Source: a virus. Taken from it: DNA of 64,000 bases. Positions 10,366-34,855 of this stretch are shown piece after piece. Under the pieces are notes generated by a model. That model worked only from the letters and a program-made list of their open reading frames with translations, was not told where the DNA came from and ran no database searches. The stretch's first letter is position 1. Every line of letters begins with the position of its first letter. The position numbers were made by a program, and so were the translations under genes. The stretch covers positions 32,001 through 96,000 of the IMG/VR virus record IMGVR_UViG_3300037245_001320; one strand, 5' to 3'.

Positions 10366-12204
10366 ATGCAAATGCCAAGAGAAATAGAGGAGAGATTAAT
10401 AGAAGCAAAAGTAAAGTATTATGAAGGGACACCAATAATGGATGATGCTCCATTTGATTTACTAGAGGATGAGTTGAGATCTGTGGATCCCGATAATTCT
10501 TATTTTAGTTTAGTAGGATCGAGAGAACAAGGGGCGGATATTGTACATAAATATAGAATGAAGTCTATGGCAAAAGGGAAACAGCCAGAGGACGTAGAGA
10601 AATGGATGAAGAATATAGGAATAAAAGATCCCCAATTTAGTTTAGTCTTGCTTCCGAAAGTGGATGGAGTTTCTGCAACCTTAAGATACATTAAAGGAAA
10701 ATTAGTATATGTTGCCTCAAGAGGAGATGGAACAACGGGTAAGGATATAACCCACATAGCAAAGCATATGAAAGATATACCCCTTCAAATAGATTTCACC
10801 CAAGATGAAATTGAAATTAGAGGAGAATTATATTTAAGTAAATTTGGTAATCATGGTATAACAGGCCCATTAAGAAATAACTGTACAGGATTAATAAACA
10901 GGCAAACAGATACAAGCCAAACACATCATTTAAGATTTGTGGCTTATCAAGTTGTACTAGGTGGATTTAAGACTGTTAAGGAATACTTAACAACTCTATT
11001 AGATAATGGGTTTAATGTGGCAGACGCTTACTATGTAACAAGTATAATAGGAATATACAATACTTATTTAGATACATTAAGAGATAAGTGGGAGTATGAA
11101 ACCGACGGTTTAGTAGCGGTTGTTAATGATTTAGGCTCTTACAGAAGCATAAATGCTTTGTATAAAGATAATGACCATCACTGGTTCACGAATTTCGCTT
11201 TGAAACCTCCATCAGTAGGAGGAGAGACAACTTTAATTGATATTGAATGGCAGATGTCAAGACAAGGCTTAATGATACCTGTAGCTATTTTTGAAACAAT
11301 AACTATTGGTGGAGTAAACATACAAAGAGCGACTGCAAATAACTACCTTAATGTCTGTGATTTAGATTTGAAGAAAGGAGATATAATCATAATTGAAAGA
11401 GCTAACGATGTAATACCATTCCTAAAGTCAAATAATGGAGGAGGAGAAGGAAATCTTATACCAACAGTTTGTCCTCATTGTGGATCTCATTTAGAAGAGG
11501 TTGGAGTACATTTAGCTTGCTTAAATCATGAGTGTGAGGAACAAGTTATTCAGAGAATTATCTATTATGTTAGAGAGGCTGATATTGATAATGTAGCTGA
11601 AGGGATGTTAAGAGCAATCTACACAACAGGCTTACTAAAAACACCTGCTGACTTATATAGAATTACTAGAAACGATCTATTATATGTAGATGGACTAGGA
11701 AGTACAAAGATAACAACCTTTATTGAAGGAATTAAGAAAGATCGGGTAATAACACCTGTAGAACTTCTTGCTCGTTTAAACATTCCATTAGTTCGGGTAA
11801 AAGGATTGACTAAGTTAGGCATTGATACAATAGACACATTCCTAAGTTATGATGATAAAGGAACAGCAATTGGGAAAAATGTAGTTGAGTGGAAAGAGAA
11901 AGATTACAATATTGATCTCCTAAATGATTTAATAGCAACAGTTGAGATCATAGTAGAAGAAAAAGATGATAAAGTTGGATTAGAGTCTAAAGGCAAAGTC
12001 TGCGCTACAGGAAGTGCTCCAATGGGTAGAAAAGAACTACAGAAGATCATTGCTGAGAAAGGATACGAGTGGCATTCATCTGTGACAAAGGATCTTAACA
12101 TATTGTTAGTTGATGATGTTAATGGATCATCAAGTAAGATAGTTAAAGCAAGAAAGAATGGAACAACTATTATGTTGTATGAGGAGTTTTTAAATGATAT
12201 GTAA
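10366..12204 (+). CDS. ligA: NAD-dependent DNA ligase
   Basis: KVDG adenylation motif, SRGDG, EIRGE, RN...G, DGLV, RANDVIP, CPHC..C....C zinc finger, C-terminal BRCT (SVTK...SSK..KA). Confidence 0.95.
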   Translation: MQMPREIEERLIEAKVKYYEGTPIMDDAPFDLLEDELRSVDPDNSYFSLVGSREQGADIVHKYRMKSMAKGKQPEDVEKWMKNIGIKDPQFSLVLLPKVDGVSATLRYIKGKLVYVASRGDGTTGKDITHIAKHMKDIPLQIDFTQDEIEIRGELYLSKFGNHGITGPLRNNCTGLINRQTDTSQTHHLRFVAYQVVLGGFKTVKEYLTTLLDNGFNVADAYYVTSIIGIYNTYLDTLRDKWEYETDGLVAVVNDLGSYRSINALYKDNDHHWFTNFALKPPSVGGETTLIDIEWQMSRQGLMIPVAIFETITIGGVNIQRATANNYLNVCDLDLKKGDIIIIERANDVIPFLKSNNGGGEGNLIPTVCPHCGSHLEEVGVHLACLNHECEEQVIQRIIYYVREADIDNVAEGMLRAIYTTGLLKTPADLYRITRNDLLYVDGLGSTKITTFIEGIKKDRVITPVELLARLNIPLVRVKGLTKLGIDTIDTFLSYDDKGTAIGKNVVEWKEKDYNIDLLNDLIATVEIIVEEKDDKVGLESKGKVCATGSAPMGRKELQKIIAEKGYEWHSSVTKDLNILLVDDVNGSSSKIVKARKNGTTIMLYEEFLNDM

Positions 12205-21549: not shown

Positions 21550-21726
21550 ATAGGAAGGTTCGCATCTTCCTTAAGGTACAGTAAAATAGAGTCTCAAAGA
21601 ATCAATAAGAAAAACATATAAAAACCTCTTATTAGATCAGAAGTTAGGAAGAACTTTAAAGGATTTACTCTATTACCTTTGAAGTTCTATGCGAAACCTA
21701 ATGGAAGATCTAATAAGAGGTTTTTC
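21550..21726 (+). ncRNA. Structured leader RNA A (hairpin, long stem, two pseudoknots) upstream of HNH gene 1
   Basis: 19-bp perfect stem 21620-21638/21707-21725; two loop-loop complementarities; same fold as 33608-33780. Confidence 0.75.
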
Positions 21727-21748
21727 ATTTAAAAAAGGAATAAAAATA

Positions 21749-22762
21749 ATGAAACCAAGAGAAGTATCGCACAGATACAACAAAGCAAATGTTATGGTAA
21801 ACAAAGAACAGAAAGAGAAGATGTGTTCTGTTTGTAACAAAGTGAAAAGCCATAAGGAGTTCAATAAATCTTCTTCAAACAAAACAGATAGGTTAGCTGG
21901 AAGATGTAGAAAATGTGAACTTTCTCTACGGTATATAGTAAAAGACACACCTACTACAAAAGCAAAGAAATATAATAAAGACCACCAAGAAGAAAACTTA
22001 AAAAATAAGGAAAAGATGTGTGTATCATGTAATATAGTAAAGCCCTTAGAAGAGTATAATAAAGATAAAGCACGAAAAGATGGTAAGCAATCAGTGTGTA
22101 GACCCTGTAGGCAAGCATTTTACACTACTAATGACCAAAAGAAAAAAGCGAGGATGTATGATGATACCCCTGAGAGAAAAGCATACGAAAAGGAGCGAGC
22201 ACAGAGACCTGAGAGAAAAGCTTATTGTAAGGCACTCAGTAGCACACCTAGAGCAAGAAAACAACAAAAAGAGCATAGAAGTAGACCAGAAGTAAAAGAA
22301 AGACAAAGAGAGTTAAGTAAAATGCCTCATAGAAGAGCAACCACCAATGCATACAGGCAAAGTATAAGAGACAGACCAGAAGTTAGAGCTATGAATGCTA
22401 TGAGGGGAATTATACATAACACAGTAGCTAAGTTTGGAACTAAGAAAGAAAATAAAACTGTAGAAATAACAGGATACTCAGCTAAAGAGCTTATATCACA
22501 TTTAAACAAAGGGAAATACAAATGGAAAGACTATATGAAAAACACACATAAAAATATACTCTTCCACATCGACCACATCATACCCATATCCTATTTTGTA
22601 AAGAAAGGAAGAGAGTATTCAAAAGAAGAGCTAAATAAACTTATTTCTCGTGTCAATGATTTAAGAAATCTTAGAATATGGCCAGGAAGATTAAATGAAT
22701 CTAAGCATGATAAAATAGACAGGGATTTAATCAGAGAACATGGAATAGAGGATCTTCTTTAA
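21749..22762 (+). CDS. HNH endonuclease with N-terminal zinc-finger repeats (paralog 1)
   Basis: Two K.C..C...K...F/Y......C..C units, basic RPE repeats, HIDHIIP...NLR....N.SK; ATG 21749 has the RBS. Confidence 0.8.
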   Translation: MKPREVSHRYNKANVMVNKEQKEKMCSVCNKVKSHKEFNKSSSNKTDRLAGRCRKCELSLRYIVKDTPTTKAKKYNKDHQEENLKNKEKMCVSCNIVKPLEEYNKDKARKDGKQSVCRPCRQAFYTTNDQKKKARMYDDTPERKAYEKERAQRPERKAYCKALSSTPRARKQQKEHRSRPEVKERQRELSKMPHRRATTNAYRQSIRDRPEVRAMNAMRGIIHNTVAKFGTKKENKTVEITGYSAKELISHLNKGKYKWKDYMKNTHKNILFHIDHIIPISYFVKKGREYSKEELNKLISRVNDLRNLRIWPGRLNESKHDKIDRDLIREHGIEDLL

Positions 22763-25212: not shown

Positions 25213-26385
25213 ATGACAGAATTAACAGGAAAATACACAAGCTGTAAAATATTTACAGACTACACAGAGCAATCAGCTATAAGTCAGGTATATGAGTTTT
25301 TAAATCATCCCGCATTTGAAAATAAGAAAACAAGGTTCATGCCGGACATTCACGCAGGCTCAGGAGCAGTAATAGGAACAACAGTAGAATTAGGAGACAA
25401 AGTTATTCCAAACACAATTGGGGTTGACATTGGATGTGGCATGTACTCAGTTAAGCTTTCTACAAAGGAAATTAACTATAAAGCTTTAGATAGAAATATC
25501 AAGCAGAATGTCCCTTCAGGATTTAACATGAATAACAAACAACAGGCAATTCCTAAATTGTTAGAGCGAGATATTGTATCAACCTGCAAAGAAATTGGGA
25601 TTGAAACTCATAGAGCCTTATTTTCTTTGGGCAGTTTAGGTGGAGGCAATCATTTCATCGAAATTGGGAGGGATGAACAAAATTTTCTTTGGTTAACTAT
25701 TCATTCGGGATCCAGAAACTTTGGCTTACAAATAGCTAAGTATCACCAGAAGATAGCAGAGCAAAATTATTCCAACCCTAAACCTGATTTAACAAATGTT
25801 TCTCCAAAGGAAAGAGAAGCTTATATAAGAAAGTTCAAAGAGACAAGAGTTAAAATACCAAAAGGCATGGAGTATTTAACAGGAGCAGATAAAGAAGCTT
25901 ATGAACTTCATATGCGTATTGCTCAAAGATATGCGTCTGAGAGTAGAAAGATTATGGTCAGAAACATCCTAAAGACTTTAGATTGTGCTGTATTAGAAGA
26001 GATTGAATCAATCCACAACTATATAGACTTCGAGCATGGTATCATTAGAAAAGGAGCTATTTCAGCACAGAAAGATGAGTTGGTTATTATCCCTTGGAAT
26101 ATGAGAGATGGTTTAATTATAGGCAGAGGTCTAGGTAATCCAGACTGGAACTTCTCAGCACCTCACGGAGCAGGAAGAACTATGTCCAGATCCCAAGCTA
26201 AGAAAGAAGTTAACTTAGATGAGTTTAAAGCATCAATGGAAGGGATTTATTCTTCATGTGTTTCTGAATCTACACTAGATGAATCTCCTATGGCTTACAA
26301 GGACCACACTGAGGTTGAGAAATATCTAGAAGAATCAGTAGAGATTCTACATAGAGTTAAACCAGAATATAATTTTAAAGCATAA
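25213..26385 (+). CDS. rtcB: RtcB family RNA ligase
   Basis: MPDIHAG, GVDIGCGM, GSLGGGNHFIE, HSGSR, HNY, RKGA, SAPHGAGR, DESPMAYK. Confidence 0.95.
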   Translation: MTELTGKYTSCKIFTDYTEQSAISQVYEFLNHPAFENKKTRFMPDIHAGSGAVIGTTVELGDKVIPNTIGVDIGCGMYSVKLSTKEINYKALDRNIKQNVPSGFNMNNKQQAIPKLLERDIVSTCKEIGIETHRALFSLGSLGGGNHFIEIGRDEQNFLWLTIHSGSRNFGLQIAKYHQKIAEQNYSNPKPDLTNVSPKEREAYIRKFKETRVKIPKGMEYLTGADKEAYELHMRIAQRYASESRKIMVRNILKTLDCAVLEEIESIHNYIDFEHGIIRKGAISAQKDELVIIPWNMRDGLIIGRGLGNPDWNFSAPHGAGRTMSRSQAKKEVNLDEFKASMEGIYSSCVSESTLDESPMAYKDHTEVEKYLEESVEILHRVKPEYNFKA

Positions 26386-30508: not shown

Positions 30509-31186
30509 ATGAATTATAGTTGGAGATTTAACAAAGAAGTTGTAGGGGAATTCGATGAACATGTAAGACAATCCGTTCCATTATATGAGGTATTTCATGC
30601 CTCAATTTTGGATCTAGCCAAATATTACATAACCCCCAATTCTGATATTATCGATGTAGGCACATCCACAGGACATTTTATAAATTCCATATATGAAGAT
30701 AAGTTAGATAGAAATAATAAGTATGTAGGAGTAGACATAGAACCTGATATGATTACAGAGTGTAGAGAGAGGTATAAGGATAAAGATATCTCATTTATAC
30801 TATCAGATGCTATTGAAGTGGACTACAAGAATGCAAGTGTGATAACTTTAATATTACTTCTACAGTTTATGAAGAAGCCAGAGAGAATAAAGTTGTTACA
30901 ACATATACACGACTCAGTTAAGATAGGCACAGCTCTGTTTATAGTGGAGAAAATAAAAACACCTAACTTAGATATACATGATATGTATGTGGATGTTTAT
31001 TATGACTTCAAAAGATCACAAGGGTTATCTGATACAGAAATACTAGATAAGAATACCTCATTAAGAGGTGTGATGTTTCCCGAGACTCTACCTGAGATCT
31101 TACGTATTCTAGACTTCATTGGGTTTGACACAGAGGTTAATGTTAAGTATAACAACTTTGCCAGTATAATAGCGGTAAAGAGATAA
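30509..31186 (+). CDS. cmoA: CmoA-like (carboxy-SAM synthase family) SAM-dependent protein
   Basis: W.F...V...FDEHVRQSVPLY, DVGTSTG, LQF, VEK, DFKR.QG.S..EI..K..SL.GVM follow the CmoA pattern. Confidence 0.75.
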   Translation: MNYSWRFNKEVVGEFDEHVRQSVPLYEVFHASILDLAKYYITPNSDIIDVGTSTGHFINSIYEDKLDRNNKYVGVDIEPDMITECRERYKDKDISFILSDAIEVDYKNASVITLILLLQFMKKPERIKLLQHIHDSVKIGTALFIVEKIKTPNLDIHDMYVDVYYDFKRSQGLSDTEILDKNTSLRGVMFPETLPEILRILDFIGFDTEVNVKYNNFASIIAVKR

Positions 31187-31195
31187 AGGAGAAAT

Positions 31196-32032
31196 ATGAT
31201 AAGACAAATATTAAAAAACACCATAAAGGCACAATTAGAAATAGATTCTAATCCAGCTCTGTTACTTAGTGGAGGATTAGATAGCCTTTCTATATTATTG
31301 GCCTGCTTAGACATAGGATTTAAACCCCATTGCTATACATTCTATTTAGATAATTATATTTCAGAAGATCTACTTTCGTGTAGAAAACTGAGAGATATTT
31401 ATGGATTTAAGTTAACAGAAGTAGTTATAAATACAAGTGAAGTAGATGTGTACAGGGATTGTATAGATATATTAAGAGAACATGCTCATTTGGAACACAC
31501 GACTAAGCACACAAAAACTTTTGTTCAATGTTACCAGCCCATGTTGTATTTGCTTCCATATATAACAGAGACAACTGTTTTATCGGGTATATTTGGGGAC
31601 ACTCTTCAGTTTAACTCAAGAAAATTTGCTGTAGCAAGCAAGAACATGCCCTACACAGAACTAAATGACATAAGAATAAATAAATTAAAGAATCCCTACT
31701 CCAATAGCTACAAACCTGTTTATGACTTGTTTGCTAGAGAGTATAAAATTTTTAAAGCTGTCTATTTAGAAAAAAATGTACAGGATTACTTTTTAGAAAA
31801 AAATTACCTAGCTTGTATGAAACCTAAGAGGAAGAACTTAGTATATGAATCTTTTAAAGATGAAATAGATAAGTATAAACTATATCGAACACCTTCAGGA
31901 TATCAGGTAAATAGTCATATTAGAGAATGGCATGATGATGCTTTATTAAATAATACAGAAATTAATATAAATAATAACAAAGCTGTAATAGGAATATACA
32001 ATAGAATACTAAGAGAGATAAAGGAGAAATAA
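31196..32032 (+). CDS. Asparagine-synthetase-like ATP-dependent amide ligase (synthetase domain only)
   Basis: PP-loop LLSGGLDS and VLSG..GD; no N-terminal glutaminase domain. Confidence 0.7.
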   Translation: MIRQILKNTIKAQLEIDSNPALLLSGGLDSLSILLACLDIGFKPHCYTFYLDNYISEDLLSCRKLRDIYGFKLTEVVINTSEVDVYRDCIDILREHAHLEHTTKHTKTFVQCYQPMLYLLPYITETTVLSGIFGDTLQFNSRKFAVASKNMPYTELNDIRINKLKNPYSNSYKPVYDLFAREYKIFKAVYLEKNVQDYFLEKNYLACMKPKRKNLVYESFKDEIDKYKLYRTPSGYQVNSHIREWHDDALLNNTEININNNKAVIGIYNRILREIKEK

Positions 32033-32036
32033 GAAT

Positions 32037-33518
32037 TTGCAAAAAGAAAAAATTAAATTATTCAGTACCTTCACAGGAATAGGTAGCCCAGAGATGGCTA
32101 TGAGAAACATAGGATTGGATTTTGAGGTCGTAGGTATATCAGAAGTAGATAAGTGGGCTTTACAAGCTTACGACGCTATCCATTGTGAGAATGAACCAGA
32201 ACCAGAATACCCAACAAAAGAAGAAATGAAAGAATACTTCCTAGAAAAGAATATAGCTTACAACTTCTCCACAGGTAAATCAGAGATGCCTAGAAATGAA
32301 AGAGATCTACAGAGATTATATAAAGCACATAAGAGAAGTCGAAATTTTGGGGATATCAGATTGATAGATGAACACAATCTACCTGAGTTTAACTTCTTCA
32401 CATATAGCTTTCCATGCAAAAATATATCAGTTGCAGGTACACAATCAGGTTTAGATGAAGGATCAGAGACCCAATCATCCTTACTATGGGAGTGTAAAAG
32501 ACTAATAGAAGTAAACAAACCTAAATACCTCTTAATGGAGAATGTTAAGAATCTTGTAGGTAAGAAGTTCAAACCACTATTAGAGTTATGGATAGAGACT
32601 TTAGATGAACTAGGATATAAATCATCTTATAAAGTATTGAATGGTAAAGATTTTGGAGTACCTCAGAATAGAGAAAGAGTTATGATGATTTCTATTTTAG
32701 ATGATGGAGAAGAAGATTATATTTTTCCAGAAGGACAACCACTAGATATATGTCTACATGATGTGTTAGAGCCTAAAGTAGATGAAAAGTACTATATCAA
32801 CCCTGAGAAGTACAAGCATATAACAGCACCTTTACCCTCACAAGAAATAAGCTATTGTATTGATGCTAATTATCATAAAGGTATTTCTGTAGATCAATAT
32901 ATCTTGAAGAGAAGAAGACAATTAGTTCAGGTAGGTAATCTAGAGAATAAGATTCATTCTAATACCAGAGTTTATGCTGAGGAGGGATTAAGTCCAACTT
33001 TAAATAGTATGAATGGAGGCAACAGACAACCTAAGATCCTAGTAGACGGATGTGCTATAAGAGGTAGGACTCCTAAGGGAGAAGGCAAGGATACCCCTGT
33101 AGAGCAGAGATTAGAGATAAACAAACATGAGGGTGTTTCTAACAGTATAACCACTGTAGGGAAGGATAGTCTTGTTTGTGAGACATCTTATGGGGGAAGA
33201 ATCGTAGGTAGAAATCCAGATAATCCCAAAAGCAGAGTAAAAGGACTACCTACTGTACAGATGTTAGAGTTGAATAAAAACCCTGATATCTCTAATACTC
33301 TGTCTACCGTTCAAAAAGATTCTGTGGTAATGAATACTCATAGGAGAGTTAGAAAATTAACACCTCTAGAATGTTGGAGACTAATGGGCTACACAGATGA
33401 AGATTTTGAGAAGAGCAGGGACAAGGGGTTTTTAGCAAACACAAAGTTATACGAGAGAGCAGGAAGAGGAATTGTAGTTCCTATGCTTGAAGCATTACTT
33501 ACAAATCTATTTTATTAA
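32037..33518 (+). CDS. C5-cytosine DNA methyltransferase family protein (probable carboxymethyltransferase, multi-TRD)
   Basis: FTGIG, GDI, YSFPC, MENVKNL, PQNRER, RKLTPLECWRLMG; motif X reads AGRG instead of AGN(S/A). Confidence 0.9.
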   Translation: MQKEKIKLFSTFTGIGSPEMAMRNIGLDFEVVGISEVDKWALQAYDAIHCENEPEPEYPTKEEMKEYFLEKNIAYNFSTGKSEMPRNERDLQRLYKAHKRSRNFGDIRLIDEHNLPEFNFFTYSFPCKNISVAGTQSGLDEGSETQSSLLWECKRLIEVNKPKYLLMENVKNLVGKKFKPLLELWIETLDELGYKSSYKVLNGKDFGVPQNRERVMMISILDDGEEDYIFPEGQPLDICLHDVLEPKVDEKYYINPEKYKHITAPLPSQEISYCIDANYHKGISVDQYILKRRRQLVQVGNLENKIHSNTRVYAEEGLSPTLNSMNGGNRQPKILVDGCAIRGRTPKGEGKDTPVEQRLEINKHEGVSNSITTVGKDSLVCETSYGGRIVGRNPDNPKSRVKGLPTVQMLELNKNPDISNTLSTVQKDSVVMNTHRRVRKLTPLECWRLMGYTDEDFEKSRDKGFLANTKLYERAGRGIVVPMLEALLTNLFY

Positions 33519-33607: not shown

Positions 33608-33780
33608 AAGAGGAAACTGAACCATCCTCAAAAACTACTTGACATTCTGATAAAAGTAAATTAAAATTGGAGAATATATAAGAACTCCATTTAAATGAAA
33701 ACAGGAGAATAATAAAGATTTCAGAATGGTCTTTAAAATATTCGGTTCAGACCTGTGGAAACTTAGATGGAGTTCTTTTT
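33608..33780 (+). ncRNA. Structured leader RNA B upstream of HNH gene 2
   Basis: 15-bp stem 33680-33694/33763-33777; CUGAACC/GGUUCAG and CAUUCUGA/UCAGAAUG pairings; same fold as RNA A. Confidence 0.75.
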
Positions 33781-33793
33781 ATATAATAGGTAA

Positions 33794-34855
33794 ATGAGTA
33801 AAGAAAAAGAGAAAGATGTTGTTAGTGTTGGGATGAAGAAGTGTAGAACTTGTGGGAAAGAGAAGGAATCTACTTTAGAGAACTTTCACGCAGGAAGAGG
33901 AAGCAAAGGAGGATTTCTACTTGATTGTAAAGAATGCAAGCGAGCCAAGGAAAGAGGAGACAAATATTATTTAGAACACTTTGAAAGAGAGGAAGACACT
34001 ACTCCAGCAGGATATAAGAAATGTAGTGATTGTGGGAAAAATAAAGAACAAACTGCTGAGTTTTTCCACAGAGACAAAGGATTTAAATCAGGCTTTAAGG
34101 CAAGATGTAAAGATTGTGAAAATATTATTAGAAACAAGCCAAAAAGAAAAGCCAACGATAAAAAACAAGCACAGAACCGCAACGCTAGACCAGAAGTAAG
34201 AATTCAGAGAAAGGAACAGAGAAAGGAATATAAAGCTAGACCAGAAGTTACGAAACACACTAAAGAGTATAATAAAGAATATTTATCTAGACCAGAAGTT
34301 AAGAAACATACTAAAGAGTATCATAAAGAATGGTATAAAAAACCAGAAAATAAAGAACGTAAAAAACAACAAGATAGGATAAATTCCCAAAAGCCTGAAA
34401 ATAAAGCTAAAAGAGCTGAAAGACGCAGAGAAAGATACAAAAATGAACCCTTATTTAGAATAAGGGTTAATCTTAGCAGAAATTTTTCCAGTCAGCTAAA
34501 AACACTTGGAACAAAAAAGCCCTCTGGAACTATGACTTATACAGGATGTACAAATGAAGAACTCTTAAAACATTTAAACACAGGCGAGTACACAATGAAG
34601 GACTACATGACAAACACCCCTTTGGAGACCTTCTTCGATTTTGATCACATAATACCTTCTCAGTATTTCTTAGATAGAATTAAAACAGATGAAAACGATA
34701 AAATAACAAAAGAGACACTTCCTTGGTTGCATAATTGGTGGAGCTACAGAAACATGAGGATTTGGCCTCATATACCCAATATTATTAAAGGAAAGAATAT
34801 AGATCAGGAGCTAATAGCTAAACATGGTATAGAAGATCTGTTAACTATAGATTAA
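33794..34855 (+). CDS. HNH endonuclease with N-terminal zinc-finger repeats (paralog 2)
   Basis: Two KKC..CGK.KE...F......CK.C units, RPEV repeats, DFDHIIP...NMRIWP...N..K, C-terminal LI..HGIEDLL shared with paralog 1. Confidence 0.8.
   Translation: MSKEKEKDVVSVGMKKCRTCGKEKESTLENFHAGRGSKGGFLLDCKECKRAKERGDKYYLEHFEREEDTTPAGYKKCSDCGKNKEQTAEFFHRDKGFKSGFKARCKDCENIIRNKPKRKANDKKQAQNRNARPEVRIQRKEQRKEYKARPEVTKHTKEYNKEYLSRPEVKKHTKEYHKEWYKKPENKERKKQQDRINSQKPENKAKRAERRRERYKNEPLFRIRVNLSRNFSSQLKTLGTKKPSGTMTYTGCTNEELLKHLNTGEYTMKDYMTNTPLETFFDFDHIIPSQYFLDRIKTDENDKITKETLPWLHNWWSYRNMRIWPHIPNIIKGKNIDQELIAKHGIEDLLTID

Follow-up and report, generated by a model that had tools for sequence, protein, structure and literature searches.

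What does a phage gain from a homologue of a carboxy-S-adenosylmethionine (Cx-SAM) synthase, an asparagine-synthetase-like ligase and a C5-cytosine DNA methyltransferase homologue encoded side by side? The question is raised by a locus in IMG/VR virus record IMGVR_UViG_3300037245_001320, a 154-kb record that is ~90% complete and has a GC content of ~33%; the stretch analysed here, termed the window, comprises 64,000 nucleotides of that record (bases 32001-96000). A first-pass annotation of the window proposed that the phage makes Cx-SAM, places the carboxymethyl group of Cx-SAM on C5 of cytosine in DNA, and derivatises the resulting carboxylate in an ATP-dependent reaction. Our analysis bears out the gene content on which that proposal was built, three contiguous open reading frames (ORFs) on the + strand that belong to families TIGR00740, PF00733 and PF00145, and supports the proposed pathway, which is the same as that of Synechococcus phage S-B43, with all three proteins homologous (Yang et al., Nat Commun 2025; PMC12783734). 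By analogy with S-B43, we conclude that the three genes very probably are a CmoA-CmoY-CmoX DNA hypermodification cassette of the S-B43 kind.

The published system provides the reference for each step. SpCmoA makes Cx-SAM, and does so ten times faster than E. coli CmoA; SpCmoX, a homologue of C5 methylases, transfers carboxymethyl to cytosine at GC sites to give 5-carboxymethylcytosine (5cxmC) and, as the wild-type enzyme, accepted only Cx-SAM; and SpCmoY, a stand-alone asparagine-synthetase-like ligase, acts on 5cxmC in DNA in vitro with ATP and glycine to give a glycine amide, the form that S-B43 virion DNA carries (PMC12783734). The two products are recognised by mass, with m/z 286.1 for 5-carboxymethyl-dC and m/z 343.1 for the glycine amide nucleoside, and a 1.9-A structure of SpCmoX (PDB 8YF3) shows Arg350, in place of HhaI Asn304, in contact with the Cx-SAM carboxylate (PMC12783734). 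In our comparisons the S-B05 copy of the cluster, a 100.0% megablast match over its whole length, stood in for that of S-B43. The window cassette shares with the S-B43 cassette its three families, the order cmoA-cmoY-cmoX (an order found also in Staphylococcus phage vB-SscS-F1), an Arg in transferase motif X (ER.GR), and a stand-alone ligase without a glutaminase domain; it differs in that it resides in a low-GC phage genome.

The occurrence of cmoA follows the form of the neighbouring transferase. CmoX of the window has Lys after the Pro-Cys of motif IV and Arg in motif X (PCK/GR), where canonical enzymes have PCQ or PCT and Gly-Asn (PCQ/PCT-GN). An alignment-based scan of IMG/VR and GTDB genomes gave 160 loci that encode related enzymes, and we searched 6 kb on each side of each with CmoA- and CmoY-clade profiles. 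A CmoA-clade gene is present within 6 kb at 8/8 PCK/GR loci vs. 0/152 canonical PCQ/PCT-GN loci (Fisher p 1.1e-13). Six additional contexts, fetched by protein identity (P0006, P0009, P0023, P0101, P0126 and P0130), all have a gene for a CmoA-like class-I methyltransferase next to or near the gene of the query protein, and each includes a C5 transferase gene too. Thus the GR variant, which the first-pass annotation had allowed might be common in methyltransferases lacking such neighbours, is not found without cmoA. The order of the genes varies among the loci (A-Y-X, A-X, A-X-Y and Y-X-A), and cmoY is present at about half of them. The alignment-based scan was needed: single-sequence scans of viral contigs with CmoA or CmoY alone found no relatives, and a first scan with CmoX alone found only canonical GN methylases without cmoA.

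The linkage bears directly on the alternative that CmoX is a SAM-dependent methylase with an unusual pocket, making ordinary 5-methylcytosine, next to CmoA- and AsnB-like proteins that act on tRNA or on a small molecule. Such an arrangement would be in keeping with the presence of all C5-methylase motifs in CmoX, with the fact that CmoX stands nearest to true methylases, M.MpeI and M.HhaI among them, and with a CmoA homologue that falls below the curated family cut-off and lacks the Arg199 of the E. coli enzyme. It would not account for the perfect association of the PCK/GR signature with cmoA, nor for the GR-type transferases that are fused to CmoY domains; the tRNA route has no CmoB that we could find in the 154-kb record; and wild-type SpCmoX, which has the same Arg, is specific for Cx-SAM (PMC12783734). 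We therefore consider ordinary methylation extremely unlikely.

Some loci with cmoA depart from the PCK/GR pattern. In Staphylococcus phages, both vB-SscS-F1 and SPbeta-like (L002:6521-7528 and L003:5723-6721), the C5 methylase encoded beside cmoA retains PCQ, and its motif X is VVGGVI, in which Gly takes the place of the Arg of CmoX; if these enzymes use Cx-SAM, the carboxylate must be bound differently. In a metagenomic phage (L083:7383-9520), cmoA and cmoY are followed by two small genes and then by two tandem C5 transferase genes of a third type (GGSCMG in motif IV; ERLGRA and ARIGRS in motif X), the products of which group with SpCmoX in the tree described below.

The product of cmoX matches PF00145 (E 3.2e-60) and retains the C5-methylase motifs, with Pro-Cys at residues 126-127, ENV at 168-170, and QNRER at 210-214. 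The two departures from the family pattern that the first-pass annotation had pointed out, PCKN in motif IV and ERAGRG in motif X, hold when set against the PCQ or PCT and the KQAGN(S/A) of related canonical methyltransferases. The closest solved relative is M.MpeI (E 6.5e-41; Foldseek E 1.3e-25, template-modelling score normalised to the target, TMt, 0.76), followed in Foldseek searches of the CmoX model by matches such as M.HhaI (about 1e-20), with SpCmoX 8YF3 at rank 38 (E 5.8e-11). Judged from sequence and model together, window CmoX is thus nearer to true methylases than to SpCmoX. HMMER alignments of CmoX to 4dkj and 8c56 set the AGRG Arg against the Asn of AGNS in M.MpeI (N374), that is, exactly at the position at which the N374K substitution turns M.MpeI into a CpG carboxymethyltransferase, as described in work of the Kohli laboratory cited in PMC12783734 and PMC13288465. 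The first-pass annotation had invoked that substitution, and its statement agrees with those accounts. Window CmoX differs from the engineered enzyme in that its basic residue is natural and is Arg rather than Lys, and in that it combines the residue with a change from PCQ to PCK and with a dedicated Cx-SAM synthase. As the two enzymes cannot be aligned in their variable regions, CpG specificity is not to be presumed for CmoX.

The signature is a property of a clade, not of a single sequence. In 120 sequences, comprising window CmoX and its 119 best homologues among the matches listed from a collection of 5.8 billion proteins, motif IV has Lys in 116 and motif X has Arg in 117; the two sequences with PCQ also have GN. 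A quick maximum-likelihood tree built from 56 enzymes, with support values from the Shimodaira-Hasegawa-like approximate likelihood-ratio test (SH-aLRT), unites the PCK/GR enzymes in a single clade (SH-aLRT 100) that is nested among canonical PCQ/PCT-GN enzymes of the M.MpeI type. SpCmoX lies far from that clade, together with a third, "GGSC"-type GR lineage, and canonical enzymes stand between the two. The sequence E-R-x-G-R is common to the PCK/GR and SpCmoX lineages. An independent origin of the motif X Arg was considered and set aside as a claim: the approximately unbiased (AU) test does not reject a single GR clade (p 0.4, log-likelihood difference 6.5), and convergence is accordingly possible, yet not claimed. 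One member of the PCK clade, P0029, reads PCKD in motif IV and AGNG in motif X, perhaps because the Arg reverted in nature, or perhaps as a sequencing variant. Two CmoX-clade homologues, P0005 (845 residues) and P0098 (734 residues), contain the Hint/intein Pfam domains PF13403 and PF14890 and are apparently products of intein-containing carboxymethyltransferase genes.

Window CmoX differs from SpCmoX also in length: it is 121 residues longer, and it carries two extra modules of the target-recognition-domain (TRD) type. The segment between motifs IV and IX is 313 residues long, compared with about 205-215 residues in the shortest clade members. It comprises a module shared by most of the clade and two tandem duplicates, B and C (Table 1), whose alignment to each other scores 90, where shuffled sequences average 21.9 (z 14.9). 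The duplicated unit occurs singly in many enzymes of about 410-430 residues and doubly in P0004, L087 and L105. AlphaFold models modules B and C with low confidence (predicted local distance difference test, pLDDT, 24-43). Long regions of tandem TRD-type units, set between motifs VIII and IX, characterise the multispecific C5 methyltransferases known from phages of Bacillus (SPR, phi3T, SPbeta and H2), and the variable region of CmoX has weak matches to those of the phi3T, SPbeta and H2 methylases (E 2e-4 to 9e-4). We tried to read target sequences from this similarity and rejected the assignment, the matches being too weak. Unlike CmoX, the enzymes of the Bacillus phages have GN in motif X and are methylases. 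The two extra modules suggest, from sequence, that CmoX has up to three recognition modules and may be multispecific.

The cmoA product covers the TIGR00740 carboxy-SAM synthase model over its full length (E 2.2e-40; model positions 13-239 of 239) and matches the solved CmoA structures 1im8 (E 1.6e-25) and 4gek (E 5.5e-25), the phage family phrog_4752 (E 1.3e-50), and SpCmoA (27% identity, E 2e-31). The SAM-binding residues Y39, D62, G64, S66, D89 and F137 are kept in window CmoA, and at each of these positions at most one of the 121 clade members differs. Full-length homology and retention of these residues likewise connect the protein to E. coli CmoA, which works with CmoB in the pathway that makes 5-carboxymethoxyuridine (cmo5U) in tRNA. 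The phage differs from that pathway in three respects: no CmoB was found in its record, the carboxylate-binding Arg199 is replaced by Asn, with an Arg at the Glu203 position, and the proposed acceptor is cytosine in DNA rather than uridine in tRNA. The absence of CmoB from the record makes a role of Cx-SAM in tRNA modification unlikely.

The cmoY product, 278 residues, is similar to asparagine synthase over the synthetase part alone (PF00733 E 2e-6, profile positions 2-136) and consists of just that domain, with no glutaminase domain. The AF2 model (pLDDT 93) retrieves in Foldseek the synthetase domains of human and E. coli asparagine synthetase (score normalised to the query, TMq, 0.69-0.73) and beta-lactam synthetase (up to 0.74). 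Window CmoY and SpCmoY are 28% identical (E 8e-24), and the residues invariant in the clade (the ATP-pyrophosphatase loop, or PP-loop, Y47, S56, D58, K107, K213, S240 and K262) are all matched in SpCmoY. Stand-alone CmoY proteins form a family of 356 representatives at E <= 1e-30. CmoY adjoins a C5 transferase in the window and at loci L081, L082, L109, L113, L119 and L193; in L083 it is three genes away from two GR-type transferases. In three natural proteins, P0278, P0344 and P0321, CmoX and CmoY are fused, in both orders, and all three have the motif X Arg; the fusions independently tie the ligase to the DNA enzyme and point to DNA as the shared substrate. In a further protein, P0339 (412 residues), a SET domain is fused to a CmoY-like domain.

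The same observations bear on the place of CmoY in the pathway. The first two steps could be as proposed and CmoY could act earlier or elsewhere, amidating Cx-SAM or another carboxylate, so that the DNA would carry plain 5cxmC or receive a ready-made group. The modest identity of window CmoY to SpCmoY leaves room for a different substrate, and about half of the PCK/GR loci lack cmoY, which indicates that 5cxmC alone is viable as an end product. Three points speak for DNA as the substrate: 5cxmC in DNA is a substrate in vitro for SpCmoY, which requires both ATP and glycine (PMC12783734), the pocket Arg of CmoX suits a cofactor with a free carboxylate and not with an amide, and natural proteins fuse CmoY to a DNA transferase. 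An action of CmoY elsewhere is, in our assessment, very unlikely.

A separate question is which amine is joined. The first-pass annotation had named a simple carbamoylmethyl group, with amidation or another derivatisation of the carboxylate; the derivatised carboxylate stands, and an amide of glycine or another amine is the more likely form, because the stand-alone ligase SpCmoY uses glycine. Formation of 5-carbamoylmethylcytosine, with free ammonia as nucleophile, would be within the capacity of asparagine-synthetase-type domains, which can use ammonia, and no sequence feature of CmoY excludes it. The authors of the S-B43 study put ammonia forward solely for those ligases in which a glutaminase domain is retained, a proposal that they were unable to test, and window CmoY is unlike those ligases (PMC12783734); moreover, the clade-invariant residues of window CmoY are those of the glycine-using enzyme. 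We regard 5-carbamoylmethylcytosine as an unlikely product.

The analogy with S-B43 underlies what we propose for all three chemistries, for the role of Lys128, for the number of target sequences, and for the amine. In the first step, CmoA would convert SAM and host prephenate to Cx-SAM. In the second step, CmoX would flip out a target cytosine, Cys127 would attack C6, and the carboxymethyl group of Cx-SAM would pass to C5, giving 5cxmC; Arg477 of motif X would hold the cofactor carboxylate, possibly with help from Lys128 beside the catalytic Cys. In the third step, CmoY would use ATP to adenylate the 5cxmC carboxylate and would couple it to an amine, so that a hypermodified cytosine with an amide linkage results. 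The phage would probably benefit through protection of its DNA from host restriction.

Several observations weigh against the conclusion that the window encodes a cassette of the S-B43 kind. Two concern CmoA. The 138.9-bit score on TIGR00740 is below the curated cut-off of 193.3, and Arg199, which in E. coli CmoA salt-bridges the cofactor carboxylate and has been proposed as a hallmark of the family (PMC3663124), is absent, with Asn at the aligned position. The first-pass annotation had aligned these residues correctly by eye and had entered the missing Arg as a caveat against Cx-SAM synthesis. The caveat is largely answered by the S-B43 enzyme: active SpCmoA also lacks Arg199 (it has Glu there), and its copy scores 115.6 bits on TIGR00740, lower than window CmoA. 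Both objections are thereby weakened, not removed. The two phage proteins share, in addition, an Arg four residues on, at the position of E. coli Glu203: SpCmoA reads K-E-K-E-L-R-D where window CmoA reads K-N-T-S-L-R-G. In the 121 clade members the Arg199 position is Asn in 119 and the Glu203 position is Arg in 120. From these alignments, Arg199 marks the bacterial CmoA enzymes and not the phage ones, and we infer that the later Arg, one helical turn away if the segment is helical, would take over the carboxylate salt bridge. PMC12783734 contains no discussion of a role of this Arg in SpCmoA.

Others concern CmoX. The identity to SpCmoX is low (23%, BLASTP E 2e-10, with ERAGRG aligned to ERVGRM). 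The motif SPPC of SpCmoX (SPPCS) is replaced by SFPC (SFPCK). The published survey, which lists 5,615 candidate CmoX proteins, 4,257 CmoA proteins and 2,251 ligases, defined its CmoX candidates by "SPPC" together with R350 (PMC12783734). SPPC is a filter of that survey rather than a demonstrated functional requirement; the window clade has S[FY]PC in nearly all members and SPPC in one (P0101). The R350N variant of SpCmoX is a dead enzyme and not a methylase (PMC12783734), from which it follows that a single motif X residue does not alone define the choice of cofactor. For CmoY, the 28% identity would place the window protein outside the SpCmoY similarity cluster, drawn at a threshold of about 30% identity (PMC12783734), and the amine may therefore differ. 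Finally, a search of the 154-kb record for chorismate mutase of the CM_2 type (PF01817), the only type searched, found none; prephenate would thus probably come from the host.

The three genes lie head to tail and are tightly packed (Table 1). The ATG of cmoA and the stop codon of the small ORF before it overlap (ATGA), cmoY and cmoX each have an AAGGAG ribosome site ahead of them, and a terminator scan of the cluster found no terminator-like site at either gene junction; both of its hits fall within the coding sequence of cmoA. Downstream of cmoX is a strong promoter-like site.

Table 1. Features of the cassette and of its surroundings in the window (positions are those of the window; residue numbers are those of the proteins).
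Feature	Position	Strand	Evidence or remark
cmoA, carboxy-SAM synthase homologue, 225 residues, ATG start	30509..31186	+	TIGR00740, PDB 1im8/4gek and phrog_4752 matches
CmoA motif K-N-T-S-L-R-G	31049..31069	+	aligned to E. coli CmoA: Asn for Arg199, Arg for Glu203
cmoY, predicted stand-alone AsnB-type ATP-dependent amide ligase, 278 residues	31196..32032	+	PF00733, SpCmoY homology, fold
CmoY PP-loop SGGLDS (ATP pyrophosphatase motif)	31268..31285	+	S25, G26, G27, D29 and S30 invariant in clade alignment
cmoX, candidate C5-cytosine carboxymethyltransferase, 493 residues, TTG start	32037..33518	+	PF00145, M.MpeI likeness, PCK/GR clade
CmoX motif IV SFPCKNIS	32406..32429	+	catalytic Cys127, then Lys128 in place of Gln or Thr
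CmoX variable region, module A (..GLSPTLNSMNGGNRQPKI..) (..SPTLNSMNGGNRQPKI..)	32928..33047	+	common to most of clade (alignment consensus); model pLDDT 72-90
CmoX modules B (336-392) and C (393-440), tandem TRD-type duplicates (..RGR..P..Q.LE.NK..SN..TV.KDS.V..)	33042..33356	+	
CmoX motif X ERAGRG	33453..33470	+	Arg477 at the place of M.MpeI Asn374 and SpCmoX Arg350
Terminator-like scan hit	30586..30604	+	inside cmoA coding sequence
Terminator-like scan hit	31069..31055	-	inside cmoA coding sequence
Promoter-like site TTGACA-17-TAAAAT	33639..33667		strong; after cmoX, before the gene at 33794..34855
Paralogous genes with Lar-like and endonuclease VII/HNH-type domains	21689..22762 and 33794..34855		flank the accessory stretch with the cassette
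Genes for NAD-dependent DNA ligase and RtcB-type RNA ligase	10366..12204 and 25213..26385		

In the region examined nearly all long ORFs are on the + strand, and the cassette is part of an accessory stretch immediately upstream of genes for an HNH-type nuclease and for portal, head and tail proteins. The eight small ORFs upstream of the cassette gave no informative family in searches, and ARAGORN found no tRNA genes in the window. In addition to CmoB, searches of the 154-kb record for ParB_N and for a second C5 transferase found none, and cmoX is the sole C5 transferase gene of the record. Two paralogous genes with Lar-like and endonuclease VII/HNH-type domains flank the accessory stretch, and elsewhere in the window are genes for an NAD-dependent DNA ligase and for an RNA ligase of the RtcB type. 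In the phage collection the portal protein finds no relative at more than 33% identity, and a DNA search with the cluster returned short methylase matches only; the phage is without a close cultured relative. The nearest copies of the cassette in bacterial genomes, at GTDB loci, are in gut Bacilli and in Bacillota metagenome-assembled genomes, which hints at a Bacillota host.

Since the pathway was published in December 2025 (PMC12783734), as the first-pass annotation had suspected of related phage pathways, the window cassette is a new example and not a discovery. What we observe directly are homologies, motifs, conserved gene linkage and domain fusions, and what they add is a large PCK/ERAGRG clade of CmoX, the statistic linking it to cmoA, the shifted Arg of CmoA, the CmoX-CmoY fusions, and the extra TRD-type modules. 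We raise, as a rather doubtful but specific extension, that CmoX is a naturally multispecific carboxymethyltransferase for two or three motifs and that CmoY uses an amine other than glycine, which together would yield an undescribed base, with Lys128 as a second ligand of the carboxylate and with Cx-SAM use perhaps gained independently of the S-B43 lineage.

Modification of phage DNA by way of carboxy-SAM extends well past the cyanophages, to large, low-GC, uncultured phages. It does so with a populous CmoX lineage that has the signature S[FY]PCKNIS and LYERAGRGIVVP, and that would probably be missed by the literal "SPPC" filter of the published survey. The published picture gains two small points that can be tested, the shifted Arg of phage CmoA and the naturally fused CmoX-CmoY proteins. 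As a natural counterpart of engineered M.MpeI N374K, which is used in sequencing methods, the PCK/GR lineage could supply ready-made carboxymethyltransferases with new, and possibly multiple, specificities.

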